The position numbers and the translations under genes are program-made. Source: an uncultured Chloroflexia bacterium (GTDB lineage Bacteria; Chloroflexota; Anaerolineae; Anaerolineales; UBA4823). From it: a DNA stretch of 64,000 nt. The stretch lies in assembly GCA_963702535.1 (NCBI GenBank), contig CAVPDG010000025.1, forward strand, positions 237,315 through 301,314. Direction: 5' to 3'. The notes beneath the pieces are model-generated. The model did not search any database and was not told the DNA's origin. It saw only the letters and a program-made list of their open reading frames with translations. Shown piece by piece: positions 28,159 through 57,265 of this stretch (position 1 is its first letter; every line of letters begins with the position of its first letter).

Positions 28159-28174
28159 TGGCACAAAACTTGCA
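28159..28174 (+). promoter_or_regulatory. sigma-54 (-24/-12) promoter upstream of rpoN
   Basis: TGGCAC-aaaac-TTGCA is an exact match to the TGGCAC-N5-TTGCW consensus. It ends 36 nt before the rpoN ATG (28211). A TATAAT hexamer (28181-28186) follows immediately. Confidence 0.7.
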
Positions 28175-28210
28175 ACAAGGTATAATCGAATAAATCCGCG
28201 AGGGAATGCC

Positions 28211-29755
<1,545 letters not shown>

Positions 29756-29759
<4 letters not shown>

Positions 29760-31723
29760 ATCCACCCCCTCAATTCTACACACTGCCAACCTTACGGCGC
29801 GCCCCCGGTCAGGCGGACTTTGAGGCGCTGCTCGACCTGCTGCCAGTTCCTGCACTGCTCCTCGATGCCAGGAGCAAGCGCGTGGTGCTGGCTAACGCTC
29901 GGGCAACTGAGCTGACCGCGTATACACGGGCGGAGCTTGCCGGTATGGATTTCGAGCGTCTCTCCGCCAATCCCACAAGCCAGGCGGCTTTGCAGAAGAG
30001 CACCACGGAAGCGGATACGCTGCCGCTGGCGCTATTGAAAAGGAATAAATCACAGGTCGAGATCGTCGCCAGTTTCCAGAAGCTATCTTCTCAGAGCCGG
30101 TGGATTCTGGCATCTCTGGAACCGGCTGAGCAAGTGCAGCGGCGCATGATGGAGAGCACGCGGCGGGGTGAGGTCATCGACAGCATGAAAATGATCAGCG
30201 CCGCCATCCACCAGCCTCACTTGAACAGCGCCGCCCAGGATATGGTAGAAGCCGCCCGCCAGATGACCAAAGCAGATACCGCCGCCCTATACCTGCAAGA
30301 ACTGGCTGGCACAGGTCAGGAAATCCTCATGCCCAGGCTGATCGTTTCTGGCGCCGCGGGGGTCCTCCCTGATGCGCTTCCCGCCCAGGATATGGCGCAC
30401 CTGCGCCGCCCCCTCATCTGGACGCCTGGTAAGCGTATCGCCAGCAGCCTGCATCTGGCAGCCCGTTCCAACAGCCTGGCATACCTGGCAAGCGCTCCAT
30501 TGGGCAGCAGCTCGGCTGCCATCGGCGTCTTGGCTCTTGCAGGCAGCGCTACGCCCTCCCTGGAATTGCTCCTGGTGCAGGTCGAGATACTGGCAGATGC
30601 AACGTCCGCTCTGATCGAGCATCACAGCCGCGCCACGAGCCTGGAGGCAGACTTGCTGGAGCTGAAGCGCACGGCAGCGATCCGGGCGCTCGTTGAGAAC
30701 ACGATCGACGAGGCGGTCATCGTCCTGTCTCCCGAGCTCGACTCTCACGCGTATGAACCAGGCAGCAGAAGCAATCCTGGGGTACTCGTCTGGGGAAGCC
30801 GAGGGGCAGCCCGTAGATCACATCCTCATCGCCACAGAATCCCTGATCCCCATGCTTAAAAACGCGCTCGATGGACTACCCACCTTGAAGGCAGAAAACT
30901 TGCACATCTACCGCCGAAACGGCGAGACGTTCCTGGCGCAGGTAAGCGTTCTCCCTGCCCGCATCGAAGATAGCATACAAGGGACGATCCTCTTGATCCA
31001 GGATATGAGTGAGAAAGAGCAAATCCAGGCTCAAGCCCAGCAGTTGGAGCAGCGCGCCTTACTGGGTGAAGTCACGGCGATCTTCGCTCACGAAGTGCGC
31101 AATCCGATCAACAACATCAGCACCGGCTTGCAATTGATGGGTTACAACCTGCCAAACGACGATCCGAACCAGGAGATCATCAGCCGTTTGCAGGCCGATT
31201 GTGACCGTCTCGGAGAGCTGATGAAATCGGTGCTGGCATTCTCGCGCCCGACAGAATATGAGATGGAGTCCGTGGCGATTGGACCCTTACTGAATCGCCT
31301 GCTCGAGCGCCAGCGCTCACGCAGCGCCACGCCGCCCATCCAGACCCACATGCAGATCGAGACCGGCACGCCGGATGTCCGAGGCAACGCCCGCGCTCTC
31401 GAACAGGTATTTTCCAACCTGATCACCAATGCAGCCCAGGCGATGAGCGACACCGGCGGAAGCATCGCGGTTAAGGTGCGCCAGGTGGTGGCTGGCGAAG
31501 AGCGCCGTTACATCCAGATCGATGTCGCCGATAACGGACCCGGCATCCCCAAAGAGCTTCAGGAACGCATCTTCCAGCCGTTCTTTACAACCAAGCCCAA
31601 TGGCACGGGTCTCGGTCTGGCGATCACCAAGAGAATCATCACCGCACACAAAGGGAATATCCAGGTCAGCAGCTTCCCTGGCGGAACCGTGTTTCACGTA
31701 CAATTGCCCGCCATGGAGGCATA

Positions 31724-31724
<1 letters not shown>
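29756..31724 (+). CDS. PAS/GAF sensor histidine kinase (NtrB/AtoS-like); frame break near 30740
   Basis: The ATG overlaps the rpoN stop (ATGA). N-terminal PAS-like and GAF-like regions and a second PAS (MNQAAEAILGYSSGEAEGQPV). H-box FAHEVRNPINNIS, ATPase boxes NLITNA, DNGPGIP, GTGLGLAI. Confidence 0.85.
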
Positions 31725-32901
<1,177 letters not shown>

Positions 32902-32905
<4 letters not shown>

Positions 32906-34756: not shown

Positions 34757-36325
34757 CTACGGATCCCTGCTTACAAAGGGAAGATAGGTTGTGAATGAAT
34801 CCAATAAGACCGGAATATAAAACTCGATGTGCTTGATGACAAAGGGGATGTAGCTCGTATATTGCACCGGCGCGAGCGGCGTAACCGTGACATAATCCGT
34901 GATCCATACCAGGTAGCTATCCAGGACGCAAAATTTTCGCTCGTCCAGAGCAGCAACACATACTTTGTACGGGATTAACGTGCCATTCGCCACATCCAGC
35001 GGCTCAATGCCAATTTTGCTCTCCCCTTGGTCATTGGTCGGATCCATCACATACACCCGCGGCGAGCCGTCTGGAAGGCTTAGCGTTAGCTCAGGGCGGC
35101 TGCCGCTCAGGGGCTGGTTATTCCCATACACCACGACGCCGATGACTTGCTCCTGGTTGGGTGAGACCATGGGCAGGTCTTCCCACACCTGTATCGCCAG
35201 GTCAACCGGCTGGCTCTCATCCACCGTTGCCGTTTCACGCCTGTAAAAGAGATCCCGGTACTTCAAGCCCAGGTGCACCGGCGCGATAGAAATTTCACCC
35301 GTCCCGGAGATTTGCGCTTCCAGGCACAGGTTCCTGAAGCACTGGCGATACGTTGTGCTGTCCAGTTGGGATAGCTGAGATACAGGCGCCCCAGCCAGCT
35401 CCATGCCCCCATGTTTCTGAATGTAGTCTATGAAATAAGGCGGCACGTTATAGCCCAACCCACCCTGCACCGGATAAAAATAGAGGTTGGTATCAACCGC
35501 AGGCGTTTGCAAGGCGTCGCCCATCAACCCCAGTTTCTCCGCAAGCGGCAGCAGCGCAACCGTGTCGGGATATTGGGGGTTGAATACCATTACCAGGTTA
35601 TCGAAAATCTGCTGCATGGATCCGTCCTGGGTCAGGTATGGCTCCGTCCGGGCATAGCCGGTAAAATCCAGTCCTAAGCGCGCCACTTCTTTCAGGAAGG
35701 GGACCGCTGTCTTGGTCGGCATATTAACGCGGCTGTCTTCCGGAGGGGCGTGCCGGCAATGTGCATCACACTTCCAGGCGCCGTAGGAGAGCAGCCCGAC
35801 AGCATCCGCAGGGGCTCCTTCCATCCAGTAGAACCCCAGATTCTCGAAAAACTGCTCGGTTCGGTTTTTTTCAATATTCTGATGGGCTGTGGTCAGCGGC
35901 TTTCCCACCATGGCAAGCCCGCCAAGTTCCTGGTAGAGCGATGCAAATTTATTGTCAACCGGGTAACCCTCCACGATCAAAGCCCCGGATGCGCTATCGA
36001 TACTGCCCGGCAGCTCGTAGACACCCATATCCCGTCCGATGGGCGCCAGGCGCAGGCGTTGGTCGCGCGGAGCGCCGGGATTGTACTCCATCAGCGCACG
36101 GTCAACGTACTGGTAAATGACCCCTTTGCTCTCGAAGACAGGTGAGATTGCCGGACCCAAACGCGCGATTCCCCCGTAGCGCTCGTAGAGATCGCTGAAG
36201 AGGGGATCAACCGGGTACGTACCTTCCGGTAAAGGGGTCGGCTTACCCCCTGCCTGGGTGCAGGATGCCAGCAAGAAAACGAGGAAGAAGACCAGCTTAA
36301 CTGTATACGAGCGCCGCGACGTCAT
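34757..36325 (-). CDS. lipoprotein of unknown function (conserved GAWKCD..C / RQCF.NLCLE motifs)
   Basis: Intact ORF. Probable start MTSRRSYTVKLVFFLVFLLASC (lipobox LASC) at 36325. About 520 aa. No family recognised. Confidence 0.65.
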   Translation of the reverse strand: MTSRRSYTVKLVFFLVFLLASCTQAGGKPTPLPEGTYPVDPLFSDLYERYGGIARLGPAISPVFESKGVIYQYVDRALMEYNPGAPRDQRLRLAPIGRDMGVYELPGSIDSASGALIVEGYPVDNKFASLYQELGGLAMVGKPLTTAHQNIEKNRTEQFFENLGFYWMEGAPADAVGLLSYGAWKCDAHCRHAPPEDSRVNMPTKTAVPFLKEVARLGLDFTGYARTEPYLTQDGSMQQIFDNLVMVFNPQYPDTVALLPLAEKLGLMGDALQTPAVDTNLYFYPVQGGLGYNVPPYFIDYIQKHGGMELAGAPVSQLSQLDSTTYRQCFRNLCLEAQISGTGEISIAPVHLGLKYRDLFYRRETATVDESQPVDLAIQVWEDLPMVSPNQEQVIGVVVYGNNQPLSGSRPELTLSLPDGSPRVYVMDPTNDQGESKIGIEPLDVANGTLIPYKVCVAALDERKFCVLDSYLVWITDYVTVTPLAPVQYTSYIPFVIKHIEFYIPVLLDSFTTYLPFVSRDP

Positions 36326-36405
36326 CCAATCCCCTCGATATCGATTATCCTCTCGCGCGATTGCAGAACTATAGCATATTAGCAATATTATACCACAATT
36401 TTTGC

Positions 36406-36421
36406 TGGTACATTTCTTGCA
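36406..36421 (+). promoter_or_regulatory. sigma-54-type promoter upstream of 36455 gene
   Basis: TGGTAC-atttc-TTGCA matches the consensus at 10 of 11 positions with GG and GC conserved and correct spacing. It is intergenic and ends 33 nt before the ATG at 36455. Confidence 0.5.
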
Positions 36422-36454
36422 TCATCTGATACACACCACCCGGGAGAGATACCG

Positions 36455-37811
36455 ATGAATCCGGAGAAATCCACCATTCAGAAAAACCGCCTCGGCTTTC
36501 ATTACTACCCTGATACCCGCCATTATACCGATAGCGACCTGCGCACCTGGTTGCCTGTGCTGGATCAGTTGGGGGCAAAATGGCTTACCCTGGTCGCCCC
36601 AAGAGATCGGGCGATCCCTGAAGCGTTCATCACCGGTCTCGTACAGGCAGGCATTCAGCCGGTGCTGCATTTCCATTTCGCGCCGGCATCTCCCCCAGCG
36701 CCGGAAGAGATGTCGCTGCTCTTCTCCAGCTATGCGCGCTGGGGAGTGCGCTACGCAGCCATCTTCGACCGACCGAATATGAAAGCAGCCTGGAATGCAT
36801 CCACCTGGGCGCAGACCGATCTCGTCGAGAGATTCCTGGATACCTTCATTCCATTGGCTGAAGCCGCCCGCCAGGCGGGTTTAACTCCGGTCTTCCCGCC
36901 CCTGGAGCCCGGCGGTGATTACTGGGATACATCCTTCTTGCTCGCAGCATTTCGCGGCATGCAACGCCGTGGCAACCTGCAGTTGCTTGAGTCCATGGCT
37001 CTAGGAGCCTACGCCTGGGTCGGGGAACACCCCTTGGATTGGGGCGCAGGCGGTCCAGAACGTTGGCCCGGGACGCGACCCTATTTCACGCCATCAGACC
37101 AGCAAGACCAGCGCGGCTTCTTCATCTCTGATTGGTACATAGCCATCGCACAGGCTGTATTGCACAGGTCACCGGATGTTCTGCTGCTAGGCGCCGGTTA
37201 TCGCATCGGCGCTGGGATTGGATATCGCCTCATCCGTAGACGAGATCTACCAGCATACACGCCAAAATCTGGCGTTGGTCAAGCTGGTACAAGATCAACA
37301 AATTACAGACGAAGAAACCCAACCCGGGGAAAAGATCTCAGCAAAAGTGCTGGCATGCAATTTCTGGCTGCTGGCTTGTTCGCCGGATGAGCCAGAAGCT
37401 GGAAATGCCTGGTTCCAAGCCGATGGCAGCGTGCTACCCATCGTTGAAGCGCTTTACCCAACCGCGCCGGAACAACCGCAACCGGAAACGCAGGAAGAGG
37501 AGTTTCCGCCATTCGACGAGCCCCATCCTGCGCAAGTGAATTACCCCATTGAGCACTACCTTCTCCTACCCCTATACGAATGGGGTGTGGTGGAATGGCA
37601 TCTGGATGCCATCCGTCCTTATATCCTCCGGCACCAACCCACCATCGGCTTCAACCTGGCTGAAGCCATGCTCGCCAGGCACGTTACCTTGCTGGGTGGA
37701 GAGCAAACATTTCCTGCGGAAGATATCGAAAGGCTGCGCCAGGCTGGCTGTGCGGTCGAGCTCGTGAGTGGAGATGGCACAAGTATTGCAACACAGATGG
37801 CAGTCCTTTAA
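36455..37811 (+). CDS. hypothetical cytoplasmic protein (TIM-barrel glycoside-hydrolase-like N-terminal half); frame break near 37215
   Basis: ORFs 36455..37390 and 37218..37811 join as ...LLLGAGYRIGAG/LDIASSVDEIYQHTRQNL... No signal peptide. The acidic Pro-rich middle contains ...PEQPQPETQEEEFPPFDEP.... The family assignment is only a resemblance. Confidence 0.5.
37775..37790 (+). promoter_or_regulatory. sigma-54 (-24/-12) promoter upstream of ftsZ
   Basis: TGGCAC-aagta-TTGCA is an exact consensus match. It lies in the last 37 nt of the preceding gene and ends 47 nt before the ftsZ ATG (37838). Confidence 0.6.
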
Positions 37812-37837
37812 CGATTTGGCTTACAGGAGAATTCGAG

Positions 37838-39049
37838 ATGATGCTGACCAATCACTACCAACCCGAACCGGAGAACTACCATAAGCCCATCCTGAAAGTT
37901 TTGGGGCTTGGTGGCGGTGGATGTAACGCCATTGCCCGCATGATGGAGCTCGGCATCCGCGGCGTCGATTATGTTGCCGCGAATACCGACCACCAGGCGT
38001 TAGAGGCTAACCCGGCGCCCGTGAAAATCCAGCTGGGTCCCAAAGTCACGCGTGGATTGGGCGCAGGTGGAGATCCCCGGATCGGAGAGGAAGCCGCCAA
38101 GGAGAGCGCCCGCGAGATCGCTGCGGCGTTGAGCGGCGCGGAGATGGTCTTCATGACCGCCGGCATGGGTGGCGGGACTGGCACAGGCTCCATCCCGGTA
38201 GCGGCTGAAATTGTACGCTCGCTAGGGGCTGTGGCAATCGCGGTAGTGACCATGCCGTTCACCTTCGAGATCGGTCGCCGTCAAAAGAACGCCGCTGAAG
38301 GCGTAGCCAAGCTGCGCCAACGCACGAATACATTGATCGCCATCCCCAACGACCGGTTGCTCTACGTCGCGCCTCAAAACCTGCCCCTTGAGATGGCGTT
38401 CAGACTGGCAGACGATGTCCTCCGCCAGGCTGTGCAAGGAATCTCAGAGCTGATTACTGAAACCGGGATGATCAATGTCGATTTTGCCCATATCCGCAGG
38501 TTGATCCGCATGGGCGGCGGGGCGATGATGTCGATGGGACACGGGCACGGCGAGAACAAAACCAGAAAAGCCCTGGAACAAGCCCTGCACCATCCTCTGC
38601 TGGAGACTGTATCCCTGGATAGCGCAGCAGGCGTGATCGCCAACTTCACCGGCGGAGACGACCTGACCCTTTTCGAAGTCCAGGACGCCCTCACCTACTT
38701 GCAGGAGCTGACCACGGGTCAAACAGAGATTGTCATGGGCGTCATCAACGATAAGCGCCTGGAAGACCGCGTGCAGGTCACCCTCGTCATTACGGGACTT
38801 GGCGCCACCACGCTGGAACAGGCGATGTCGGATATATCCCGCTCCGAGAGAGACAATTCGCGATCTGAGAGAGAGATTTCCCGCCCGGAAAAAGTAGAGC
38901 GAGTGATTGTGAAAGCAGAAGAACCTCCCCAACTGCCTCCCACCCCTATGCCCAAACCTATGCCCCTTCAGCAACCGGTGAACGAAGCCACTTATACCAA
39001 TCTGGACTTACCGGCATTCCTGCGCCGTAGGGCTCGTTTTGCGGGGTAA
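37838..39049 (+). CDS. ftsZ: cell division protein FtsZ
   Basis: Intact 403-aa ORF. GLGGGGCNAI, tubulin signature GMGGGTGTGS, IPNDRLL. A variable Ser/Arg/Glu linker and the C-terminal peptide LDLPAFLRRR. Confidence 0.97.
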   Translation: MMLTNHYQPEPENYHKPILKVLGLGGGGCNAIARMMELGIRGVDYVAANTDHQALEANPAPVKIQLGPKVTRGLGAGGDPRIGEEAAKESAREIAAALSGAEMVFMTAGMGGGTGTGSIPVAAEIVRSLGAVAIAVVTMPFTFEIGRRQKNAAEGVAKLRQRTNTLIAIPNDRLLYVAPQNLPLEMAFRLADDVLRQAVQGISELITETGMINVDFAHIRRLIRMGGGAMMSMGHGHGENKTRKALEQALHHPLLETVSLDSAAGVIANFTGGDDLTLFEVQDALTYLQELTTGQTEIVMGVINDKRLEDRVQVTLVITGLGATTLEQAMSDISRSERDNSRSEREISRPEKVERVIVKAEEPPQLPPTPMPKPMPLQQPVNEATYTNLDLPAFLRRRARFAG

Positions 39050-39052
39050 GTC

Positions 39053-39300
39053 ATGGACCCCAAAGTATTAAAAACCGTCGTCGCCCAGGTGCAAAGGCGC
39101 TTCCCGGAGTTCGCTGGCTCTCAGCCAAAGGTGCGCCAGCAGAACGCGCCGCAAGCGAAACCGCCCGCCCCACCTACCTGCTGACTTTTCAGAGCAGCGC
39201 TAAGGTTGCCAGCAGCAATGGCGGTAAAACGATGCCGCGCTGGGTGCGCGTCGTCGTATCCGAAAAAGGGAAGATCATCAAGATCACCACCTCACGGTAA
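39053..39300 (+). CDS. small conserved-looking protein downstream of ftsZ; frame break near 39180
   Basis: ATG 39053 gives MDPKVLKTVVAQVQRRFPEFAGSQPKVRQQNAPQAKPPAPPT.... After a one-base shift it continues LLTFQSSAKVASSNGGKTMPRWVRVVVSEKGKIIKITTSR to TAA 39298-39300. Not in the ORF track because each piece is under 60 aa. Confidence 0.35.
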
Positions 39301-39575: not shown

Positions 39576-40681
39576 ATGATAGCTACCAAGACGAAATCGC
39601 TCTCCCGGCTCATCACCTTCGGGTTGCTCCTGATTTGCCTCATCGCCTTTCCAAAACCCGCGGCGGGGTACAGCGGCACCCCCGATTCGCCGAAATTTGG
39701 CTATGGCGCGCGGCTGGACCCTTATGGTGAAGATGTCGCGCTGGCGCTCAAAGCCGCTGCCAGCATTGGGATAGACTGGATCGCGGTGGATATCGATTGG
39801 GCGCGAGTGTGGCCCGACCGGAATAGTGACCCAGACCTGATGCGTTGGATTTCGTCATGCAAAAAGCCAGCCGTTATGAGCTGGGAATGCTTGTCTCAAT
39901 AACCAATCCTCCCCGCTGGGCAGTCACCGCAAAGGGACCCGACCAGGCAGCCACCATCCGCCTTGTACTCTTGCTGGCGCAACGCTACCCGCAAAACCAA
40001 CTGTCCATCGAGCTCTTCCCCGCTGCCAACACTGCGCAGGGCTGGGGAGCCGCGCCTGATCCCAGTGCTTACAACAACCTGCTCAAGGCGTGTTGGAGCG
40101 CACTACAATCGAGCGGCAGCCCGGTGCTGTTAGTTGCCGGTGGGCTTGAACCGCTTACATCTAAGCCGTCGAACGGGGATATGGACGACCTGGTATTCCT
40201 GAGCAAACTGTACAGGTCTGGCGCCGGAGGCTTTATGCCCGTCGTCAGCCTGCGCTTGCCTGCGGTGACAGCAGACGTTCTAGCAGACCCAGGCGATGGA
40301 TCAGCGCTGGTCTTGCGTCACTACGAAGCAATCCGCAAAGTGATGACCCAATACAACCACAGCTCGGGCTTGATCTGGGTCACCGGCTATACCTGCCCGG
40401 CTCAAGATCTCCGCACAGTGAATGAGCAGGCTGAGTGGATCCAGCAGTCCTACCAATTAATGCGCTCGCAATTATATATCGGCGCGGCTTTCTACGATGG
40501 TCTCAACCCGCCAGCTACCCACCCGCAACCGGGCCACCTTTACCTTGTCCGGAAAGATGGCGCCAAGATCAGCCTGCACCCTGCGCTGGCAACCCTAGCT
40601 CAGTTCATCACATTGGACCGTACCGGGCAAACCATACCCAACCTCCAGCCGGCGGAAATCACTCCCACAGGTAATAAATAA
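39576..40681 (+). CDS. secreted hypothetical protein (glycoside-hydrolase-like barrel?); frame break near 39835
   Basis: Signal peptide MIATKTKSLSRLITFGLLLICLIAFPKPAAG. ORFs 39576..39902 and 39845..40681 join as ...RNSDP.PDALDFVMQKASRYELGMLVSITNPPRW... after adding one base. Confidence 0.5.
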
Positions 40682-41560
40682 TGGAAAACGAATCCTTCGC
40701 GCCTTCTAAAAATAGCCAGGTTGACCGGGACCATCCTGCTCTTTCTACTGATCTTTACTTTCAGCCTGTGGCTCGGGCGCGGAATTGGGACCACTACCCG
40801 GCGGTCTGTTCTGGCAGCCATCTCCTCCAGCTCAAGGCATTCCAGATCCGTCGCGCAAGAATTGAAGCAAGCGAAACACAATCTCTCGCAGACAAAAGTA
40901 GCCGCACAACGCGCGAGTGATGCCCGGCAGGAAGCGCCAGGTCGCCAACGGAATATCCTTCTGATCGGCGTCGATAGCCTCCAGTCAGAAGCGCCGCGTC
41001 TCGAGGGGGTATGGATGGTTTTATACCTGCGCGATACCCCGCACTTCATGCTACTGCCCGTCTACCCCAGCCAGACGCAGAATCAGGATAACCCAGCCCT
41101 CATCGATCAAAACCTGGCTCGTCTCTTCAGCCTCGAGGATGAGCAAACACCCAATCCCTTGTTTTTACAGGCGCTCAAGGATAAGCAGCTCTGGTGGGAT
41201 GGCTTCATCGTCCTGGATAAATCGGCATTGGTTGAGATCCTGGCATTAACCTCGTCCGGCAATGCAACCACCAGCCTTAGCCAGCAGCAGGCAGCCACCA
41301 ACCTTACGAATGTTGAGGAAGCGCCTATGCGCTCTCTGCTTGGGCAAGCTCAGCTCGCCCAAGAATTGTGCCGGAGCTCCGGAGCAATGCTGGCTTCTGA
41401 TAAAAGCCGCCTCCCCGGCTTGCTGGTACAGGCTTCAGCCCATCTCCGCACCGACCTGGACCTGATAACGATGGCTGCTGAGATCGTCGAGGCATTGCAC
41501 CGCGGCGGCGGGGTCTCTTGCGAGTTCCCGTCCCTGGCATCTGCCCCCAACTTGCACTAA
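40681..41560 (+). CDS. LytR-CpsA-Psr (LCP)-like membrane-anchored protein; frame break near 40720
   Basis: ATG 40681 overlaps the upstream stop (TAATG) and gives MENESFAPSKNSQ. After deleting one base it continues LTGTILLFLLIFTFSLWLG (TM) ...QRNILLIGVDSLQSEAPRLEGVWMVLYL..., resembling the LCP core. Confidence 0.5.
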
Positions 41561-41632: not shown

Positions 41633-41648
41633 GGGCATAATTCTTGCA
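41633..41648 (+). promoter_or_regulatory. weaker sigma-54-like element upstream of 41703 / TPR genes
   Basis: GGGCAT-aattc-TTGCA matches at 9 of 11 positions with GG and GC conserved and correct spacing. It is intergenic and ends 54 nt before the ATG at 41703. Confidence 0.3.
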
Positions 41649-41702: not shown

Positions 41703-42029
41703 ATGGACCCTACTTTTACCTTCGAGCTTCTCCTGATTATGGCTTTCTCCCTGTTCGTTTTGGGTATGTTGACAACCATAACCGGTATCCTGATCCTGAC
41801 GACACGGGTTACCAATAAAGACCTGCGTACCATAGCCAGCCAGACGAGCCGCCTGGCGCAAAAAGGCTTGGCAGAAGAAGTAGCTGGTCTGGTAGGAAAC
41901 GCCTCCTCGCTTCTAGATGCGATGAACCAGCTCGTGCGCACGACGGCTGGCGTGGGAGTTTTCCTGACCTTATTCGGCATGTGCATGATCTGTGCTGCGG
42001 GTTGGCTTGCCCTAAGAATTTACCCTTGA
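41703..42029 (+). CDS. small two-TM membrane protein
   Basis: MDPTFTFELLLIMAFSLFVLGMLTTITGILILT ... GVGVFLTLFGMCMICAAGWLALRIYP, 108 aa from the internal ATG of ORF 41622..42029. Confidence 0.5.
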   Translation: MDPTFTFELLLIMAFSLFVLGMLTTITGILILTTRVTNKDLRTIASQTSRLAQKGLAEEVAGLVGNASSLLDAMNQLVRTTAGVGVFLTLFGMCMICAAGWLALRIYP

Positions 42030-42043
42030 ATAATGGAGCGCCC

Positions 42044-45000
42044 ATGAGCTCTTCAACCAGTGTTTTCATCCGTCAGATACAACGGGTCTTCCCTGAAACG
42101 GTCTGGCATTGGCTCATCAGAGCCTTGCGCCACGACCCGCTGGTCTGGGAATTCCTGATTTCAGAAGCTGGTCAAAAAAGCGTTGATCTCAGCTCTGGGC
42201 GCCAGGAATCGCTCTCCCCGGCTAATCTGGCGTTGCTTGCCATGCATTATCCGATCAGCGCGGAGAGCCTGCGTGAAGAGCCTATGCAGCCGGTGGACCT
42301 GGAAAACCTGGAGCTCCCCGCAGGCGAGCCAGGTCTCACCCTGGCGCAGGCAGGCAAAGACGCTCTCTGCCTGCGTGAGCGACGCCGTCTGTTAGGCAGT
42401 TGGAATGGGCTGAACAATGATCTGCTCGCGCTCTCCCCGACAGCGGTCGCATGTCTATTCGGCATGCTCTCTGATCCTCAGGAGCCATTCCACGTGCTCC
42501 TGGCTGGAGCGACCAGCCAGGGCTCGCTGGAGCAGGCAGCGACCTTGACGGCGCATGCCTTGCTCAGCAACCCCCAGTCGCCAGCCGGACAGTATGGGTT
42601 TGCCACCCAGTTATTACAGGATTTACCGCCAGCCGCTGGCTTAGAATTCATCAAAAAGGTACAGAGCTATGCTCCCCGGCTCAGCGCCGACCTGGCTGGC
42701 GACCTGGCTGCCCACCTCCAAAAAACCTCAATCACACCGCCTCCAGCCGATGAGAATGCACTCCTCGAGCAGGTCTCTGCGCTGGCGAAAGCCGCTGAGG
42801 CGGGGATACTCGCCGAACATGCCGAGCAAGCCGCACGGACGATCGATGCTTCGATTAAAGCAGCCCGCATGCTTGAAGCCAGGTTAACTGCCCGCAAAGC
42901 CCGTTTCCTTTCAGCGCAGGGAGACGACCAGGCTGCACTCCAGGCTTGGGAGGCCGCCAGCCAGCTCGACCCGAGCTCAGCCGCTCTGGTGGGTCAGACG
43001 GCAATGGCGCTGCTCGATGCCGGTCGCACCGCCGATGCGCAAAATGTCCTGGCGTCCGCCCAGGGTCCCGCGGCGCTGATCCACATCGCCCGGGCGCGGT
43101 TGGCGTTTCTTCGCGACAATGAAGAGCAGGCGCAGTCAGAAACCCGGCAGTCTCTGGAGCTGCTGGAGGCAGGCGATACTGAATGCGAGCCAGCGCCGCC
43201 GCTGCACACATTGCCGGCTGCCCACCTGGCAGGTCTGCTCATGCAGCTCAACCAACCTGCCCAGGCTGCCAGAGCGGCGCAAATTGCTGCCAGCCAGGCT
43301 CCCAACGATGCCGACATCTACGCTTTGCTGGCTCGCGCTCAATGGGCAAGCGGGGATTGGGAAGGAGCGGTAGCTGTCCAGCCAGATCTCCACTTGCCTG
43401 GAGCCATCCCGCCTGGACTTGCGGCGTGAGCTTACAGAGCGGTTGGAGCTGGCAGAAGACTGGGAAGCAGCCCTGCTAGAACGTAAAAGCCTCAACGAAA
43501 AACTGGATCCACCATCGATAGAAGACCTGCATGCCCTCAGTGAATGTGCGCTGAACGCGGGAGATGCGCGGTTGTGCTTACAGGTCTGTGAGCAGATCCT
43601 GGAGCAAGAGCCTCAAGACGGCATCGCGCTTGCCTGGCAAGGTGAAGCCCAGGCTGCTCTCGGCGAGATCGAGCCAGCACTGGAGAGCCTGCACCAGGCA
43701 ATCCAGGTTGCCCCCAGCCTGGCGATCCCCTGGTTGTCTTTAGCCAAGGTTTACCAGGGCGCCAGCCAACCCCAGAAAGCCCTGGAAACGTTGCGAGCAG
43801 CCACGTATGCGGTTCCGGATGACGCCTTGATCCATCTAAAATTGGGCGAGGCGTATATTGAAGGAGGCTCGCCAACACAGGCGCTGAGCGACCTGCGCCT
43901 GGCGGCTGAGCTTGCCGATCAGGATCAAGAGTACCCTCAATCTGAGCTAAAAAGGCACCGCATGGCGCACCTGCGCATGATCATCGCCCTGCGGCTCGGT
44001 CAGACACTGGGACACCTGGGTCATCAAGAAGAAGCCCATCATGTCCTGGAAGAGGCTTACAGCCAGGCGCCATCCAATCCGGAGATCGCCCGGGGATATG
44101 CCCAAGTGCTGCTGGCAGAAGGTGAGCTAACTGCAGCTCTGATGCCCCTGGAAACCATCCTGAATAGCCAAACTGCCGATCTGGAGGCTTACCTGGACTA
44201 TGCCGGATGCATAGCTCGAGCTCCACCAGCGCAATGAATGCGATATCTCGCTAGAAAAAGTCCTTCCGGCGCTCTACAAGGCGCTGGAGCTCCAACCCGC
44301 TCACCCCCAGGCGACCGCCATGCTGGGTGAGGCGCTGTTAAGCTGCGGCAAGCCGGTTGAAGCCCAGGCAGCGTTCAGCCAGGCTTTATTATCCGATCTG
44401 GGGCAGGACCCTTGCTGGCAGGTGCGCCTCTCTTTAGGTCTGGGGCAGGCAGCTATGCAGCTTGGCGAGTTTGAAACGGCAGTCGCCGCATTGCAGGAAG
44501 CCAACCGCATTGACCCCTTGAACTCGAAAATCCAGCGCTGTTTATCCCAGGCTTATCTGGAGGCAGGTCTGGCAGATGAAGCCTTCCAGTCTGCCAGGGC
44601 GGCGTTGTTGCTGGCGCCCACCGATGTCGATCTGTTGATCTGGTTCGCGGACCAGTCGATGAAATTGCATGAAAAGACGGGCTCACAGGAAGCTCAGCAA
44701 GAAGCCCTGAATGCCTTGAAGCGCGCCGCGCAGATCTCGCCCTCCCGACCAGAGCTGGCTGTAAAGCTCGGTCAGATGCAGATGAGATTCGGTGAGAATG
44801 CGCTCGCCCGCCAAACACTCTTGCAATTAATCGCTGAGGATGAGACGGATGGCTGTTCGCAAGCCACAGTCAAAGACTACCAGATTGCCGCGCAGTGCCT
44901 GGTGCAGCTAGGAGATGCCAGCGCGGCTGTTATTTGCCTCGAAAGGGCGATCGAGCTGACGGGCAAGAGGGATGCCGGAACGCTCAGCCTGCTTACAGAC

Positions 45001-47567
45001 CTGGCAATCGCCCGCAACCGGGCGGGAGATCAAGCTGGCGCGCTGGAAGTCATCAACCAGGCAATTTCCCTTTATCCATACCAGGCAACACTTGTTCTTG
45101 ATGAAAGCCGACTTATTAAGTGAAATGAGCCCTCGCCTGCTGACGGGGCGTGATCCCAGTCACACAGCAATCAGCAGCGAGATCCTGGATTGTTTGCAGA
45201 CCGCGATCAGGCTCAAAGCGGATGATCCCAACCTGCACGAGCGAGTAGCGAACATCTATCGCCAGGCAGGCGATTTACGCCAGGCAAGCGCTCATGCCCG
45301 GCAGATGCTGGAGGTGTGCGGCGAAACGCTGCCTCAGCGCCTGCGCGCCCGGGCGCTGGCTGCCGATCTGGCGATCGCCCAGCTCCAGCCCGATATTATC
45401 CAGGAATTGCTCGAGCTGAACCTGCCTGCATTTAAATCCCCATCCGAAGCCGCAGAGGCAGATGCTCCGGAGTACTACCTCCTTCGTGCCGAGTGCGCAC
45501 TGGATGCCGGCGAGGAATATGTCGCCGCGCACGAGCTGGTGACTGCGAGCGAGATCGAGCCGCATCACCCCGCCCTCTTGAGCTTGCAAGCTCGCCTCGC
45601 CTTCCGGCGCAACGATCCACAACCTGCTTTGGAGCTGCTCACCTCCGCTCTGCTGGCGGCGGGCGACCTCTCCAGAATTTCTCCGCTGACCAACCGCATG
45701 CTGGCGAATCACAGCGCTTGAAATCGGTCAGTGGGAGCAAGCGATCCAGCTACATGAACGCCTGGCGCTGAACTATCCTCAAGAGCCGCTTTCCCACCTC
45801 GCCCTGGGACGTGCCCTGGTCCTGTGCGCCGAGCGCCAGCGCCTTTGCCAGGCGCTGGAGGTGGTCCGGCGCGCGCCGGGTGAGCAAATATTGAGCGAGA
45901 AAGCGGCGCAGGATTGCGAATCCAGCCTCCAAAAAGTTGAGGAGCTGGTGAGCAGGCTGCGGGGGTCGCTGCCCGTCCAGGTTCAAGTCCAGGTAAGTGA
46001 GTATCGGGCGCGTGGTAAAGCAGCTTTCAAGCCAGATACCGCCAGCGCTGCGTTGCTGGCAGATCTGCCTCCCAGCCCGGATGTCATTGCCGCCCAGATC
46101 GCCGTCTTACGCCAGACGGGCGAGCTTACCTTAGCTGGCTACCTGGCACGCGACTTTTCAAAGAATCCGACTGTCCTGCTGCAGCTCGCCCTTGCCTTGA
46201 TGGACGAGAAACCCCGCCAGGCAATGGCAGCCGCGCACGCCGCTGCCGACATCATCTCGGACTCAACAAATCGCCCACCAATGCAGCCCCTTCAGAGGCT
46301 ATATCCGCTGGTCCAGGTACTGATGGCGCGCCTCTACCATCGCAACGGCAACCGCTCTGGCGATCACATCTCGGCTATCCAGGCAATCCATAACGCCCTC
46401 GCCGCGTGGCAGGATGAGCCCCGCTGGCATTTGCTGGCAGCCGAGATCTATCTGGGACGCGGCCACCCGGATGATCTGGTGGATAAAGAAGAGGCAATCT
46501 CCCACCTGGAAGAAGCCATCCGGCTCGATCCCAAATACCCATCCCCCTACCTGAGCCTGGGGAAGATCTACCTGGAAGAAGGACAACCGGAGAAAACCAT
46601 CCAGGTCTGTGAGCAAGCCTCGCGCCTTGCGGCGGATGAACCCAGGACCTGGCACTTGTTGGCTCAGGCTCATCAGCACCTGGGGCAGCTTGACCAGGCA
46701 GCCTCCAGCGCCGAGCGCGCCATTGCCCTGGCTCCGCAGGAAACAGCTTATCTTGTGCTGCGCGGTGAGATCGCTATGGACGCGGGTGATTACCAGGCCG
46801 CGCACAGCCAGGCGCTGGTCGCCATCGAGAACGATCCCGACAATCCTGGCGCGCTGTTGCTCATGGCGCGCGCCTTGCAAGAGCTCGACCAGCCTGAAGA
46901 AGCCCTGGAAGTCTTGGAGAAGGCGGTGCAGTTTGTCCCGCAGCCTTTGCCTCTACACCTGGAGAAAGTGCGCTTGCTCAACCGGACACAGGGCGCGCAG
47001 GCTGCTTACCAATCGATACAGGAGCTCAACCAACGCTATCCGGACGAGCCCAGGGTATTAGCACTCATGGCAGATATTCTCGCCAAGGCCGATGAGCCGG
47101 GCGGCGCCATCCGTGTCGCCCAGCGCGCCTTGAGAATCAACGGCGAAACTGCAGTACTTTCTCCTAAGGAGCAAGGAGAGCTTCACTTCACGCTTGGCAA
47201 GCTAATGCGCCAGGGGGGTCAGCTGGACCAGGCTATCCATCACTTGAGCGAGGCTGCCCGCCTTACACCGCAAGGGATTGACATCTATCTCGAGCTCGGC
47301 ATGGCGCACCGCGAGCGCAGGCAATACACGGAAGCTATGGAAGCCTACCAGCAGGCAGCCGCGGCAGCGCCTAAGGATTACAGACCCTACAATGAGATGG
47401 GACTGACCTTCCGCGATAACAAAGACTATCTTGGCGCCGAGCGGATGCTCCGCCGCGCAGCAGAAATGGCGCCCAACGACCCGGCTGTGCACAGGTCACT
47501 GGCAGCCGTTGTCGCATTGAACCTGCTCCACAACCGCCGTGAAACCGTCCACAATATCCGGGCGTAA
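42044..47567 (+). CDS. very large TPR-repeat protein (~1840 aa if contiguous); four frame breaks (~43375, ~44211, ~45099, ~45712)
   Basis: ORFs 41981..43429 (ATG 42044), 43419..44237, 44320..45123, 44972..45721 and 45861..47567 are Ala/Leu/Gln-rich 34-residue-type repeats. Each junction is bridged by deleting one base, for example ...DYAGCI/LELHQRNECDISLEKVLPALYKALELQP... and ...MLANH/ALEIGQWEQAIQLHERL.... Confidence 0.7.
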
Positions 47568-47631
47568 GGGCAATTCCAGGCACAGCAGGCGCTTTTCAAA
47601 CACATTCATGGTGGATAGAGGTATCTGACGG

Positions 47632-50424
47632 ATGACATCGCAGCGCAACAGTTCCCCTCCGAGACAACGCATCAAGCGAGACGTATTCCTGAAGATGATC
47701 CGCACGGCTTCTGCAAGCACGCATTTGCGCTTCACGCGTGAGGCGTGCCTGGCGTGGCTGGCAGCTTTCCCCGGAGATTTACCGGTTAGCCTGATCTACG
47801 CCCAAACTTTGCTAAAAGAAGGTCATGCCGAGCAAGCGCTCCCGATCCTGGAAAGGCTTTGCCAGACAGACCCTGAGTACCTGGAGGCGTACGCCTCGAA
47901 ATTAGAGGCTGAAAATCGCCTGCGGGCAGCCAGGATGAGCGTGTCGAAAGCGCCCTTACAGGCTTATCGCCAGGCGACCGGTCCTCAACCCGAATTGACT
48001 CGCGCCTGTATCTACGCTCTGGGGGGAAGCGCAAAAACCGTCAATATCACCTCCAAAAGCTCGAATGCCATCTCACTGGACTACCAGGCTGCCTGGAGTG
48101 TTCAAGTGCGGCAGGCGCGCCAGGCTCTTGTGCAGGACAAAGCACCCGGGCAAGGCGAGAATATCTCGTTGGATGACGCGGAGACGCTCATTCATGGAGC
48201 GCTGGCGTCCAGCGAGACGAACCCCCTCATTGCGATCACCCATCTGCGCTTGATGCAAGCCAAAAAAGCCCCCGGGCAGAGTCTGCGCAAGCTGGCTGAG
48301 TATTACCTGCAGCGCTGGCCCGCTTGCCTGCAACTAAGCCTGATCCTTGCCAATGTTCAAATGGAAGGCGGCGAGCCAGATAAAGCAGTCAACTTGCTGC
48401 ATCAAGCTGCTGCCCGCGATGTAACCGGGCAGGTCATATCACGTCTGTGGGGGGACCATCACCCGTACCTGACCCTGTGGCCCGAACGCCTTGAGATCGA
48501 GCTAGAAATCGCTATCCCTGCCGAGATTGCCGCCGCCCTGGGTTGGAACCAGCTGCCAGAGATCGCGCATGCCCTCACACCCGGTAGCTACCCTGCCCGT
48601 CCATGGCGGGATAGTGCTGCCAAATCTGCCAGAAGAGATCCAGCCAGCAAAGATGGGACCAGAGCAGCCGCTGCCTATAGCGTACCGGAGTCTTTACGCC
48701 CCATCCAGGACGAGCTGGAGCGCGTGGCACAGCGGCTACACCAAACCGGTCTTGCCAGCTCGGATGGGCGTTTTCCGGTTTATGTGCTCATGACCACCCG
48801 CAGCGGGTTGCAAGCCCAATACGGCGCTCAGTCAGCCTCGCTGGTCGAACAAGAGATGAAGCGCATGGTAGCAGCCATACAACAGCGCCGGGATTGGCAC
48901 GCCATGCTGTTTTACGCCGACCAACCTTCCATTCCAGACCTGCGACCGGCGCGTTACAACGACCCCTGGTCGCTGAAGCTGGCTCTGGCAGACCTGGATG
49001 CCGCTCTCGGCAAAGAAGGGGAGATGATCGGCGCAGTATTGATTGTGGGCGGACCGGAGGTCATCCCGTTCCACCAGCTCCCCAATCCGGTAGACGATGC
49101 CGATGATGACGTCCCCTCAGACAACCCGTATAGCACTCGGGACGAGAATTATTTCATCCCCGAATGGCCTGTCGGCAGGCTGCCGGGAGGCTGCTCGTCC
49201 GATCCGGCGAGCTTGATCAGCGGATTAGCCAGTATCACCCGGCGCCATGCAGAGTTCGTCAAACAGAGCCGCAAAACGCCCTGGTATCGAGGCTGGTTGC
49301 ACCGCTTTACCTACTGGCTGCGGATCAATCCGAAATCAGGGAGCAAGGGCGCCAGGAAGCAGGCCAGCATTGGATATACTGCAGCCGTATGGCGCAAAGC
49401 CTCAGCCGTTGTATATCAACCGATCGGCGAGCCAAAGGCATTGAAAGTCTCGCCGCCCCTATGCAACGACGCCACGTCCATCGCTCCCCTGCCCCAGGCA
49501 AGGCTGGGCTACTTCAATCTCCACGGGCTGGTCGATGCAGTGGAATGGTACGGTCAAAGCGACCCTGAAAATACCTCGGCTAAAGCAAGCAGCAAGGACA
49601 TGATCGATGGTCAGCCTGCTGTTACAGGCATAGATTACCCGGTGGCTGTGCGCCCGCAGGACATCCAGGGCAGCAGCTCTCCCGATATTATCTTCACCGA
49701 AGCCTGCTATGGTACCCATATCATTGGCAAAAAGGTGGATGAAGCGCTTTCGTTGAAATTCCTGCAAGCAGGATGCCAGGCGGTCGCAGGATCAACCTGT
49801 ACCTCCTATGGTTCGGTTACAGCGCCGTTAATCGCCGCCGACTTCCTCGGGCATGCCTTCTGGAACTACCTGCGCCAGGGTTGCCCGGCGGGAGAGGCGT
49901 TGCGCCGCGCCAAGATCGCCCTTGCCCGTGAGATGCACCAAAGACAGGGCTACCTGGACGGAGAAGACCAGAAAACTTTGATTTCCTTCGTGCTTTATGG
50001 AGATCCCCTGGCTCTGCCCAGCGACGTGCAAATGCAATCGAAATCTATCCTCCGTTCGGTGAAACCCCCGACAAAGCTCAAAATGGTGTGTGATCGCCAA
50101 CCGGAGGAAGACACAGACCAACCCGTTCCGGCTGAGGTTATGATGCACGCCAAGCAGATCGTCCGGCAGTATCTACCGGGTATGCAGGATGCGCAAATCC
50201 TCTTCAGCCAGGAGCACCTCAACTGCGGCAAGCCGGGGCAGCCTTGCCAGGCTCATTCGGATGGTAGCACAGCAAGCCGCGGAAAGGCGCCTCGGGTGGC
50301 GCCTCGGCGGCGTGTCGTGGTTCTCAGCAAACAGGTTGCCAGTTCGGACCACCTGCACCAGCACTTCGCCCGGATTACCATGGATGAGCAAAACCGCCTG
50401 GTCAAGTTGGTGGTCTCTCGCTGA
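47632..50424 (+). CDS. TPR-like N-terminal domain fused to a clan CD (caspase/legumain/gingipain-like) cysteine-protease-like domain
   Basis: Intact 930-aa ORF. N-terminal helical repeats (…AQTLLKEGHAEQALPILERLCQTDPEYLEAY…). C-terminal part has ...VLIVGGPEVIPFH..., a His-Gly dyad in a beta-strand context GYFNLHGL, and a Cys in PDIIFTEACYGTHI. Confidence 0.45.
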   Translation: MTSQRNSSPPRQRIKRDVFLKMIRTASASTHLRFTREACLAWLAAFPGDLPVSLIYAQTLLKEGHAEQALPILERLCQTDPEYLEAYASKLEAENRLRAARMSVSKAPLQAYRQATGPQPELTRACIYALGGSAKTVNITSKSSNAISLDYQAAWSVQVRQARQALVQDKAPGQGENISLDDAETLIHGALASSETNPLIAITHLRLMQAKKAPGQSLRKLAEYYLQRWPACLQLSLILANVQMEGGEPDKAVNLLHQAAARDVTGQVISRLWGDHHPYLTLWPERLEIELEIAIPAEIAAALGWNQLPEIAHALTPGSYPARPWRDSAAKSARRDPASKDGTRAAAAYSVPESLRPIQDELERVAQRLHQTGLASSDGRFPVYVLMTTRSGLQAQYGAQSASLVEQEMKRMVAAIQQRRDWHAMLFYADQPSIPDLRPARYNDPWSLKLALADLDAALGKEGEMIGAVLIVGGPEVIPFHQLPNPVDDADDDVPSDNPYSTRDENYFIPEWPVGRLPGGCSSDPASLISGLASITRRHAEFVKQSRKTPWYRGWLHRFTYWLRINPKSGSKGARKQASIGYTAAVWRKASAVVYQPIGEPKALKVSPPLCNDATSIAPLPQARLGYFNLHGLVDAVEWYGQSDPENTSAKASSKDMIDGQPAVTGIDYPVAVRPQDIQGSSSPDIIFTEACYGTHIIGKKVDEALSLKFLQAGCQAVAGSTCTSYGSVTAPLIAADFLGHAFWNYLRQGCPAGEALRRAKIALAREMHQRQGYLDGEDQKTLISFVLYGDPLALPSDVQMQSKSILRSVKPPTKLKMVCDRQPEEDTDQPVPAEVMMHAKQIVRQYLPGMQDAQILFSQEHLNCGKPGQPCQAHSDGSTASRGKAPRVAPRRRVVVLSKQVASSDHLHQHFARITMDEQNRLVKLVVSR

Positions 50425-55320: not shown

Positions 55321-55382
55321 CGGGAGCATCTAACTCGACAGATCTTAGAAGGCGAATGTTTTAACATTTGAAGGAGACAGAT

Positions 55383-56336
55383 ATGGACATCACCCTGGAA
55401 CAGGCAATCAAGGGATTCCGGCTCTATAATGAGGCAGCCGGAAGGTCAAAGAAGACCTACCTATGGTATGACAAAAACCTAAATTTTTTTCAAAACTGGC
55501 TGGAAAAACAGATCAAGCATAAACCATATCTTAGCGAGATTACTACCGAGTTGCTTCGCAGCTACCTGACACTATTGCGGTCTGAAGCAGAACAATCAGA
55601 ATTACACCCAGAGCTACTTCCCAAGAAACGGATCCGTTCTCTCCGCACCGTGCGGGGCTATTACGCCAGCCTCTCGGCTTTCTTCAACTGGGCAGTTCGA
55701 GAGGATTTGATCGCACAATCGCCGATGAAAAACATCGCCCGCCCCAAAGTACCGCGTTACATCCCCGATCCCTTCAGTGAGCAGGAAATCCGCGCTCTAC
55801 TCACAGCATGCAAATCGATGACTGATCGCAGTTCGCTTAGAATGATGGCGATGCTGTTATTCTTATTAGATAGCGGGACACGGGTTGGCGAGATGCTGAA
55901 GCTCAAGTTAGCCGATCTCAACCTTGAGCAAGGCCGTGCAAAAGTAATGGGCAAGGGTGCTAAAGAACGCTATGTATATTTCGGTAAAGCCACCAAGCGG
56001 ATTCTATGGCGTTATATTAGCCTGGCGCGACCAGAGCCAATGCCAAATGTAGAGAATCTCTTCCTGACTTTTGATGGACGACCTATTGCACAGCGCCAAT
56101 TCAGTCACATGCTTTCAAAGCTGGGAGAGGCTGCGGGTGTTAATAAGGTCCACCCCCATCGCTTTCGACGAACCGCGGCAGTTCAATTCTTGAGGAACGG
56201 AGGGAATATCTTTGCCTTACAGAAATTGCTGGGGCATGAATCTCTGGAGATGGTTCGCCGGTATGTAGAGCTGGCTTCGAATGACGTAGCTGAGGCTCAC
56301 CAAAAAGCCAGTCCTGTTGACGGGTGGAGGTTATAA
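55383..56336 (+). CDS. tyrosine recombinase / phage-type integrase (XerC/D-like)
   Basis: ATG 55383 lies 6 nt after AAGGAG. N-terminal SAM-like domain. Catalytic residues appear in ...LDSGTRVGEML (R), ...HPHRFRRTAA (HxxR), ...LLGHESLEMVRRYV (H..Y). Confidence 0.9.
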   Translation: MDITLEQAIKGFRLYNEAAGRSKKTYLWYDKNLNFFQNWLEKQIKHKPYLSEITTELLRSYLTLLRSEAEQSELHPELLPKKRIRSLRTVRGYYASLSAFFNWAVREDLIAQSPMKNIARPKVPRYIPDPFSEQEIRALLTACKSMTDRSSLRMMAMLLFLLDSGTRVGEMLKLKLADLNLEQGRAKVMGKGAKERYVYFGKATKRILWRYISLARPEPMPNVENLFLTFDGRPIAQRQFSHMLSKLGEAAGVNKVHPHRFRRTAAVQFLRNGGNIFALQKLLGHESLEMVRRYVELASNDVAEAHQKASPVDGWRL

Positions 56337-56358
56337 AGCGTACCAGTAGTGCACCAAC

Positions 56359-56670
56359 TTATTCGCCGATTGCAGTCCTTTGATAGATTTTCACCTCACG
56401 ACAGATCCGCTCACCCAATTCCTTCTCCGCCAGCTCGAGATCATAGCGCACCTGCATCCGCAACCAGACGGCAGCGCTGGTTCCAAAATAGCGCCCCAGC
56501 CTCAGCGCCGTATCGGCTGTGATAGAGCGCTGCCCATGCACGATCTCGCTGATCCGAATTGGCGACACACCGATGTCCTTCGCTACGCGATACTGGCTCA
56601 AACCGAGCGGCTTCATGAAATCCTCGAGCAGCACTTCGCCAGGGTGAATTGGTGAAAGTATCTCATTCAT
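56359..56670 (-). CDS. higA: HigA-family antitoxin (XRE HTH)
   Basis: 103 aa. IHPGEVLLEDFMKPLGLSQYRVAKDIGVSPIRISEIVHGQRSITADTALRLGRYFGTSAAVWLRMQ is the typical HigA/VapI pattern. Confidence 0.85.
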   Translation of the reverse strand: MNEILSPIHPGEVLLEDFMKPLGLSQYRVAKDIGVSPIRISEIVHGQRSITADTALRLGRYFGTSAAVWLRMQVRYDLELAEKELGERICREVKIYQRTAIGE

Positions 56671-56681
56671 ACCTATACCTC

Positions 56682-56966
56682 TCAGGAGTGGTAATCAACA
56701 ATTTCAACGTTTCTAGCCTTGCCATCAATCCATTCAAAACAGATTTGCCATTGGTCATTGATCCGGATACTGTATTGACCGGCTCGATCTCCCTTGAGTT
56801 TTTCAAGTCGGTTACCAGGCGGCGCATGCAAGTCCTGCAAATCCTCTGCACTGTCGAGATAGATCAATCTCCGTCGGGCAACGCGTTGGATATCCGGAGG
56901 TAGTTTTTGTGATAATTGACCGAGGAATATCTTCTCCGTTTCTTTCGATGCGAAGGATTCGATCAT
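56682..56966 (-). CDS. higB: HigB-family toxin (RelE/ParE superfamily, plasmid maintenance system killer type)
   Basis: 94 aa from MIESFASKETEKIF...PPGNRLEKLKGDRAGQYSIRINDQWQICFEWIDGKARNVEIVDYH. Toxin-first order, 11-nt spacer to higA. Confidence 0.85.
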   Translation of the reverse strand: MIESFASKETEKIFLGQLSQKLPPDIQRVARRRLIYLDSAEDLQDLHAPPGNRLEKLKGDRAGQYSIRINDQWQICFEWIDGKARNVEIVDYHS

Positions 56967-57079
56967 CGATGCAATGATATCACGCTGCGATATTATTATC
57001 AAGCGATAATAGAGCAATATATATCGCATGGATTCATATTGCCCTGAACTCAAGGGAGATCGTTCAATAAGTATCTAGC

Positions 57080-57250: not shown

Positions 57251-57265
57251 AGGTTATGGGGAATA

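Follow-up and report, generated by a model that had tools for sequence, protein, structure and literature searches.

A candidate sigma-54 promoter inside the gene preceding ftsZ in uncultured Anaerolineae

The cell division gene ftsZ of an uncultured member of the Anaerolineales (phylum Chloroflexota) is preceded by an uncharacterised gene, here named gene X, the final codons of which contain an exact sigma-54-type -24/-12 element, P2. Both genes are located in a 64,000-nucleotide (nt) stretch of DNA (assembly GCA_963702535.1, contig CAVPDG010000025.1, positions 237,315 to 301,314 of the forward strand), which was analysed as a whole and is called the window below; all coordinates are those of the window unless a related locus is named. 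We consider it likely that P2 is a functional sigma-54 promoter placed in the 3' end of gene X, fired by an activator that does not bind DNA and driving ftsZ. This filamentous, uncultured clade of Anaerolineae would then probably switch on ftsZ by means of an activator-gated sigma factor encoded next door. As judged from the orthologous loci compared, P2 is neither a chance match nor a by-product of coding, and it has been kept by selection acting on the DNA.

Element P2 ahead of ftsZ and its conservation

The features at the junction of the two genes are the following:
36455-37811, + strand: gene X, uncharacterised, about 450 amino acids (aa), read in two frames here with a frameshift near 37225
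37775-37790, + strand: P2, sigma-54 -24/-12 promoter element TGGCAC-aagta-TTGCA, recognised by sequence match, chance expectation and comparison
37800-37803, + strand: predicted transcription start, from the standard geometry of sigma-54 promoters
37825-37829, + strand: Shine-Dalgarno sequence AGGAG, seen in the sequence 8 nt before the ftsZ ATG
37838-39049, + strand: full-length ftsZ, with the Tubulin and FtsZ_C domains (Pfam), the GGGTGTG motif and the C-terminal peptide LDLPAFLRRR

On the + strand P2 reads TGGCACAAGTATTGCA, and it agrees with the consensus TGGCAC-N5-TTGCW at 11 of the 11 specified positions, the GG and the GC being exactly 10 nt apart. The element is contained in the codons GAT GGC ACA AGT ATT GCA (D G T S I A) and is followed by the stop codon of gene X (TAA, 37809-37811) and, 47 nt after its end, by the ftsZ ATG (37838). 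The ftsZ transcript would start approximately 11-12 nt past the GC of the -12 element (C = 37789), near 37801, and the AGGAG falls within the resulting predicted 5' untranslated region (UTR) of about 37 nt. A purine-rich GGAG/GAGG-like stretch is also found ahead of the ftsZ ATG in most relatives, in which the distance from P2 to the ATG is 41-48 nt in nine of the 10 lineages and 89 nt in the remaining one.

Exact matches to TGGCAC-N5-TTGCA occur twice in the window against 0.10 expected, and two such matches were obtained in none of the 100 shuffles of the window. The relaxed pattern GGYAY-N5-TTGCW is found five times (1.5 expected), four of the matches being on the + strand shortly before genes. 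A first-pass annotation of this DNA, made from the letters alone, had pointed out a perfect consensus at 37775-37790 on the coding strand, its end 47 nt away from the ftsZ ATG, and had held that two perfect matches in the window, both near start codons, were unlikely to be accidental; the sequence and the above counts bear this out, the other match being at 28159-28174, 36 nt before the ATG of rpoN itself.

Conservation was followed in orthologous loci recovered over graded divergence, from 97% down to about 58% FtsZ identity. The relatives of FtsZ, sigma-54 and the gene X product are all from metagenome assemblies of Chloroflexota/Anaerolineales. TGGCAY-N5-TTGCA is present at the same codons in 12 distinct lineages, that is, in every recovered orthologous locus that keeps this C-terminus of gene X. 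The 5-nt spacer varies among the lineages (AAGTA, CAGTA, AGAAA, GGAGA, GGTAA, GAGTA), and the codons flanking P2 are free to vary at synonymous sites. In the species-level genome collection FtsZ relatives reach at most 48% identity and none has the motif; one of these, an Anaerolineaceae locus (L001), was taken as the outgroup. Its ftsZ is preceded by a gene X homolog with 31% identity, a different C-terminus and no motif, and the gene X protein can thus do without the P2 peptide.

Could the motif simply follow from a conserved C-terminal peptide, GDGTSIA, and a chance choice of codons, with no function in the DNA? The peptide is indeed kept in 110 of the 120 homologs and belongs to the folded part of the structural model. 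When the codons of eight full-length gene X orthologs are aligned (approximately 1500 nt), however, 108 columns have an invariant amino acid with degenerate codons, and a single codon is used in just four of them: Asp GAT, Gly GGC, Ile ATT and Ala GCA. The -24 and -12 elements fall in these four codons, which supply motif positions 1, 4, 13 and 16; two of them are four-fold and one is three-fold degenerate, and none is a preferred codon, their joint usage probability being about 0.01 per lineage. Next to P2, the columns in which Gly, Ala, Cys, Val, Leu or Arg is conserved use 2-5 codons each. GATGGCA and ATTGCA are the two longest stretches of invariant nucleotides in the whole alignment, all others being no longer than 5 nt and starting at a Trp codon. 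In ftsZ, which served as a control, 4 of 179 columns had a single codon, all of them two-fold degenerate and scattered. Because of the invariant codons and the position of the longest invariant runs, the coding explanation is contradicted; since the spacer codons vary and the same 11 letters are found at three intergenic sites free of coding constraint, we regard it as next to impossible. The first-pass annotation had itself allowed that the motif might be missing from orthologous loci or be accounted for by the codons of GDGTSIATQ, and had suggested looking upstream of ftsZ in related genomes; neither of these explanations survives the 12 lineages and the codon counts.

Conservation at the level of RNA, such as a fold or a signal for translational coupling where gene X ends, would be in keeping with the fact that P2 is transcribed together with gene X and lies near the ribosome-binding site of ftsZ. 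Yet the consensus fold of 10 lineages amounts to -1.3 kcal/mol, consists of three trivial pairs and shows no covariation, and the motif is also present in non-transcribed parts of three intergenic regions. Rfam has no family at P2, its one match in the window being a tRNA. We give this explanation hardly any credence.

Sigma-54 machinery and the four predicted promoters of the locus

The window encodes the proteins needed for sigma-54-dependent transcription 5-10 kb upstream of ftsZ, and three further sigma-54-type elements accompany P2:
28159-28174, + strand: P_rpoN, TGGCAC-aaaac-TTGCA, an exact match 36 nt before the rpoN ATG
28181-28186, + strand: TATAAT box overlapping P_rpoN, invariant in four lineages
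28211-29759, + strand: rpoN (sigma-54), with AID, CBD and DBD domains and the RpoN box ARRTVAKYR
29756-31724, + strand: cytoplasmic histidine kinase, PAS/GAF/PAS-HisKA-HATPase (Pfam), frameshifted near 30736
31724-32905, + strand: bacterial enhancer-binding protein (bEBP) of 393 aa, with REC, sigma-54 AAA+ (GAFTGA) and lid (Pfam, profile alignment)
36406-36421, + strand: P1, TGGTAC-atttc-TTGCA, sigma-54-type, 33 nt before the gene X ATG
41633-41648, + strand: P3, GGGCAT-aattc-TTGCA, sigma-54-type, about 58 nt upstream of the gene for a membrane protein of about 107 aa

In the relatives rpoN is intact (450-454 aa) and the kinase is a single gene of about 655 aa; no transmembrane segment was predicted in the kinase. 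The bEBP matches Sigma54_activat with an E-value of 4e-67, its GAFTGA region being ESELFGYESGAFTGA. The protein stops after the lid: Pfam and profile searches found no helix-turn-helix (HTH) DNA-binding domain and no C-terminal HTH_8, and the alignments cover positions 1-383 of 463 in the NtrC profile and 6-391 of 461 in that of AtoC. The related bEBPs (388-395 aa) have the same set of Pfam domains and are all devoid of HTH. This domain architecture suggests that the activator works from solution, with no binding to DNA. Nor did gene X contain, anywhere along its length, an invariant run longer than 5 nt outside P2 that could represent NtrC-type upstream activator sites. Because the activator has no HTH and no conserved enhancer was seen, we place P2 with the enhancer-independent (FlgR/CtcC-like) systems and not with the NtrC-type ones.

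A tblastn search of the 64-kb window revealed neither a second bEBP nor a second ftsZ. The activator operon is found 1-5 kb from the gene X-ftsZ pair in the window and in five of the related loci (L042-L045 and L047). The idea put forward in the first-pass annotation, that ftsZ might be under signal-dependent, activator-gated sigma-54 control and might be tied to the sensor kinase at 29756, an unusual design, thus gains support from the comparative evidence, the nearby sigma-54 machinery and the synteny in relatives.

The four promoters are conserved as well. Before rpoN, gene X and the 107-aa gene, the motif is the only conserved island of the intergenic region. In nine lineages the intergenic DNA before gene X cannot be aligned except at P1, which is its sole invariant island; the TGGTAC of P1 resembles the nifH-type variant TGGTAT. 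P3 appears as NGGCAY-N5-TTGCA in six further loci from five lineages (L010, L011, L040, L041, L042 and L044), and the P_rpoN block is kept as CTGGCACA-N4-TTGCAAC-N4-TATAAT in three further lineages (L046, L047 and L048). Over 194 kb of sequence, comprising the window and eleven loci, NGGYAY-N5-TTGCW was matched 33 times, and 28 of the matches are at the four promoter positions in gene orientation. When aligned, the 26 sites of the clade yield TGG(C/T)A(C/t)-N5-TTGCA, which is the consensus of canonical sigma-54 promoters.

The two half-elements, TGGCA and TTGCA, are alike (TNGCA) and stand one helical turn apart, and a direct repeat of this kind, with 11-bp spacing, might be the site of another DNA-binding protein, for example a response regulator. 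The pattern of variation speaks for sigma-54 instead, as the 26 sites are invariant at TGG-A and TTGCA and vary (C/T and C/t) where its consensus tolerates variation. Furthermore, one of the sites is directly before rpoN, the locus has sigma-54 together with an activator unable to bind DNA, and the conserved cluster contains no regulator bearing a suitable DNA-binding domain. Recognition by another regulator therefore seems very unlikely to us.

Some additional promoter-like sequences were noticed at these sites. The TATAAT at 28181-28186 has a cTGGCA 17 nt upstream, and the two may form a sigma-70-like promoter overlapping P_rpoN. Such an overlap suggests basal expression of rpoN by sigma-70, plus competition or feedback by sigma-54. 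Back-to-back with P1 there is an extended -10-like box, TGGTATAAT (36387-36395, - strand), of which ATTATA is largely kept in relatives; the divergent gene for a membrane-anchored protein of about 530-540 aa (34757-36385) probably has its sigma-70 promoter at this box. In one related locus (L047) an extra exact TGGCAC-N5-TTGCA is located at 16496-16511, in a 490-nt gap between two minus-strand genes; no annotated + strand gene follows, and a small unannotated ORF (open reading frame) or RNA could be driven from it.

Proposed control of ftsZ and its gene neighbourhood

What we infer beyond the conserved motif and the syntenic machinery is that sigma-54 binds P2, that transcription starts near 37801, that it depends on the activator and that a physiological signal sets it off. 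RNA polymerase holoenzyme with sigma-54 would sit on P2 as a closed complex, to be remodelled and opened from solution by the phosphorylated REC-AAA+ activator, the gene for which belongs to the rpoN-kinase-activator operon 5 kb upstream. The product would be an ftsZ mRNA with a short leader bearing the AGGAG ribosome-binding site. As the activator presumably cannot bind DNA, no enhancer would be needed and the promoter can sit inside a coding region. P1 would drive gene X and, by read-through, ftsZ, to which P2 would add an ftsZ-specific output, while P3 would serve the membrane protein and a giant tetratricopeptide repeat (TPR) protein encoded after it. By driving the rpoN-kinase-activator operon, P_rpoN would let the module feed back on itself. 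The cytoplasmic PAS/GAF kinase probably senses an intracellular signal as the input.

If this is true, division in widespread filamentous environmental bacteria would be an all-or-none, signal-licensed event and not a housekeeping one. In P2 the same 16 nt would encode both a promoter and the C-terminus of a protein, a clean natural case of dual selection. The locus would also define a compact regulon (four promoters, one kinase, one activator) in a phylum whose sigma-54 biology is essentially unexplored. A bolder version, to which we grant a limited and clearly lesser likelihood, is that ftsZ has no sigma-70 promoter at all and that the sigma-54 module, wired to its own promoter P_rpoN, has the licensing of septation as its main task. 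On an intracellular signal it would fire P1, P2 and P3 together and supply FtsZ, the gene X product, glycosidase-like proteins and the giant TPR protein, sigma-54 being an essential division sigma factor.

The serious rival to a promoter is a site that binds the sigma-54 holoenzyme without productive transcription, acting as a roadblock or attenuator for the traffic from P1, or holding or titrating the holoenzyme. P1 is 1.4 kb upstream in the same orientation, so that its traffic would be open to modulation, and most sigma-54 sites of Escherichia coli are intragenic, with the holoenzyme transcriptionally inactive under standard conditions (Bonocora et al., 2015; PMC4591121). P2, on the other hand, is sense-oriented and stands at a near-constant, promoter-like distance from the ftsZ ATG, a ribosome-binding site lies in the predicted leader, and the other three sites are ordinary intergenic promoters. 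Thus, we hold a non-productive site to be improbable, though less so than the other alternatives to a promoter.

Several points weigh against a sigma-54 promoter for ftsZ. The gap between gene X and ftsZ is 26 nt and no convincing terminator was seen between them in a scan of 36250-39300, so read-through from P1 could fully serve ftsZ. A simple scan of the same interval found no sigma-70-like promoter on the + strand, which speaks for P2, but a weak non-consensus promoter would escape such a scan. The residues D-G-T-x-I-A are themselves conserved and form a strand-turn and the start of the last helix in the structural model; therefore, protein constraint adds to the conservation of the non-synonymous positions. 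The rpoN operon is away from ftsZ in two of the related loci (L046 and L048). All the data are from metagenome assemblies of uncultured organisms. Finally, rpoN is disrupted in the window and may be a real pseudogene in this one genome.

With respect to the last point, rpoN is split between three frames, owing to a 52-nt duplication (96% identical) that flanks approximately 45 T followed by approximately 10 G (28994-29170). Frameshifts are also found in the histidine kinase (about 30736), gene X (about 37225), an 84-aa gene after ftsZ (about 39145) and the giant TPR gene (41981-50424), whereas in relatives rpoN and these four genes are each one intact ORF. For this reason 28211-29759 was taken as one rpoN and 36455-37811 as one gene X. 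As four neighbouring genes are frameshifted too, the disruption of rpoN is most likely an artefact of assembly or reads, and the window resembles unpolished long-read data. A dead sigma-54 system was rejected as an explanation on the same grounds.

The remaining genes of the cluster downstream of ftsZ include:
39053-39297, + strand: gene for a protein of about 84 aa, the first downstream gene of the cluster, frameshifted near 39145
41706-50424, + strand: genes for the membrane protein of about 107 aa and the giant TPR protein, in several broken ORFs here

FtsZ is most similar among solved structures to that of Bacillus subtilis (E-value 1.8e-93), the alignment running from end to end and taking in the C-terminal peptide. 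Its T7 loop, NVDFAH (residues 213-218, 38474-38491), has His in place of the canonical Asp, and this His is common to 111 of 120 FtsZ relatives. The position aligns with D213 of B. subtilis FtsZ (D212 in E. coli), a residue important for GTP hydrolysis.

Gene X is a single ORF of 447-476 aa in relatives and belongs to a family of 1613 homologs, all unnamed. Its model (mean predicted local distance difference test score, pLDDT, 81) consists of a TIM barrel and a C-terminal alpha/beta domain. A fold search gave generic TIM-barrel matches only (glycoside hydrolase clan A, sugar epimerases; TM-scores 0.3-0.45), and a sequence search of the PDB was empty. No Pfam or NCBIfam family was found for gene X, the divergent gene of about 530 aa, or the 84-, 70-, 297- and 107-aa genes. 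Gene X occupies the place just upstream of ftsZ that usually belongs to ftsA, and does so even in the outgroup (L001 4596-5966, E-value 2e-62); it may be a lineage-specific division partner.

The 84-aa gene starts 4-5 nt after ftsZ in most relatives and 60 nt after it in two loci (L044 and L045). Another cluster gene, encoding 380-390 aa (388 aa at L041 5781-6947; approximately 39845-41560 and fragmented in the window), resembles the exopolysaccharide hydrolase PslG (PDB 5bx9, E-value 1.5e-07), has a weak resemblance to GH5 and begins with an N-terminal hydrophobic segment. No paralogy was detectable between this 388-aa protein and the gene X product. The giant TPR protein, approximately 1700-1900 aa in relatives with a C25-peptidase-like region, ends the cluster; its C-terminal part in the window (47632-50424) matches Peptidase_C25 (gingipain-like; E-value 1.4e-08). 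Envelope- or septum-related roles are plausible for the cluster genes.

Further downstream, a tyrosine recombinase of the Phage_integrase family (55368-56336) is followed by a drop of the G+C content to 0.52 (56000-60000), and this could be a mobile element. The only tRNA gene in the window, Pro-GGG (765-840), is far from the recombinase.

Comparison with known systems

Promoters of ftsZ located inside upstream coding sequence, beside read-through, are known from ftsQAZ of E. coli and ftsAZ of B. subtilis. These promoters are served by factors of the sigma-70 family (sigma-70, sigma-S, sigma-A, sigma-H) and work without an ATP-dependent activator, and it is ftsA that precedes ftsZ there, whereas here it is the TIM-barrel gene X. 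To our knowledge, almost all work on the transcription of ftsZ concerns Proteobacteria, Firmicutes and Actinobacteria, in which promoters of the sigma-70 family are used. Full-text literature searches, which also covered cell division in Anaerolineae, found no report of a sigma-54-dependent ftsZ promoter. In a survey of sigma-54 regulons cell-division genes were not enriched, and sigma-54 was present in only some Chloroflexi (Francke et al., 2011; PMC3162934). A second survey lists in the cell-division category only ParA/MinD-type ATPases, with ftsZ not listed as a target and Chloroflexota unmentioned (PMC12316311).

In letters and spacing P2 is the same as the canonical promoters glnAp2 and nifH (consensus TGGCACG-N4-TTGCW). 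Those promoters, however, are intergenic and have upstream enhancer sites, while no conserved enhancer was seen for P2. The activator is more akin to that of Helicobacter FlgS/FlgR and Chlamydia CtcB/CtcC, in which the bEBP has no DNA-binding domain and has been classified as type Ic (Francke et al., 2011; PMC3162934). In these systems, as here, a REC-AAA+ activator without HTH is combined with a soluble histidine kinase. Such an activator can reach any sigma-54 promoter without an upstream activator site, as is predicted for that of the window. FlgR and CtcC control flagellar or late developmental genes, whereas the system of the window would control rpoN itself, ftsZ and envelope-type neighbours, and is found in Chloroflexota.

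The closest precedent for the placement of P2 is provided by E. coli, in which conserved intragenic sigma-54 promoters located in nagB, rlmD and yqeC drive nagE, relA and yqeB, respectively (Bonocora et al., 2015; PMC4591121). There a sense-oriented -24/-12 element inside the upstream gene is kept in different species and drives the gene that follows, as is proposed for P2. The E. coli sites differ in having 5' UTRs of 360-760 nt and the DNA-binding NtrC, as opposed to the leader of about 37 nt predicted for P2, its position in the last codons, ftsZ as the target and an activator without a DNA-binding domain. Intragenic sigma-54 promoters as such are therefore already known; what would be unusual here is the ftsZ target and the wiring, which is linked to rpoN, independent of enhancers and built from four promoters around ftsZ.

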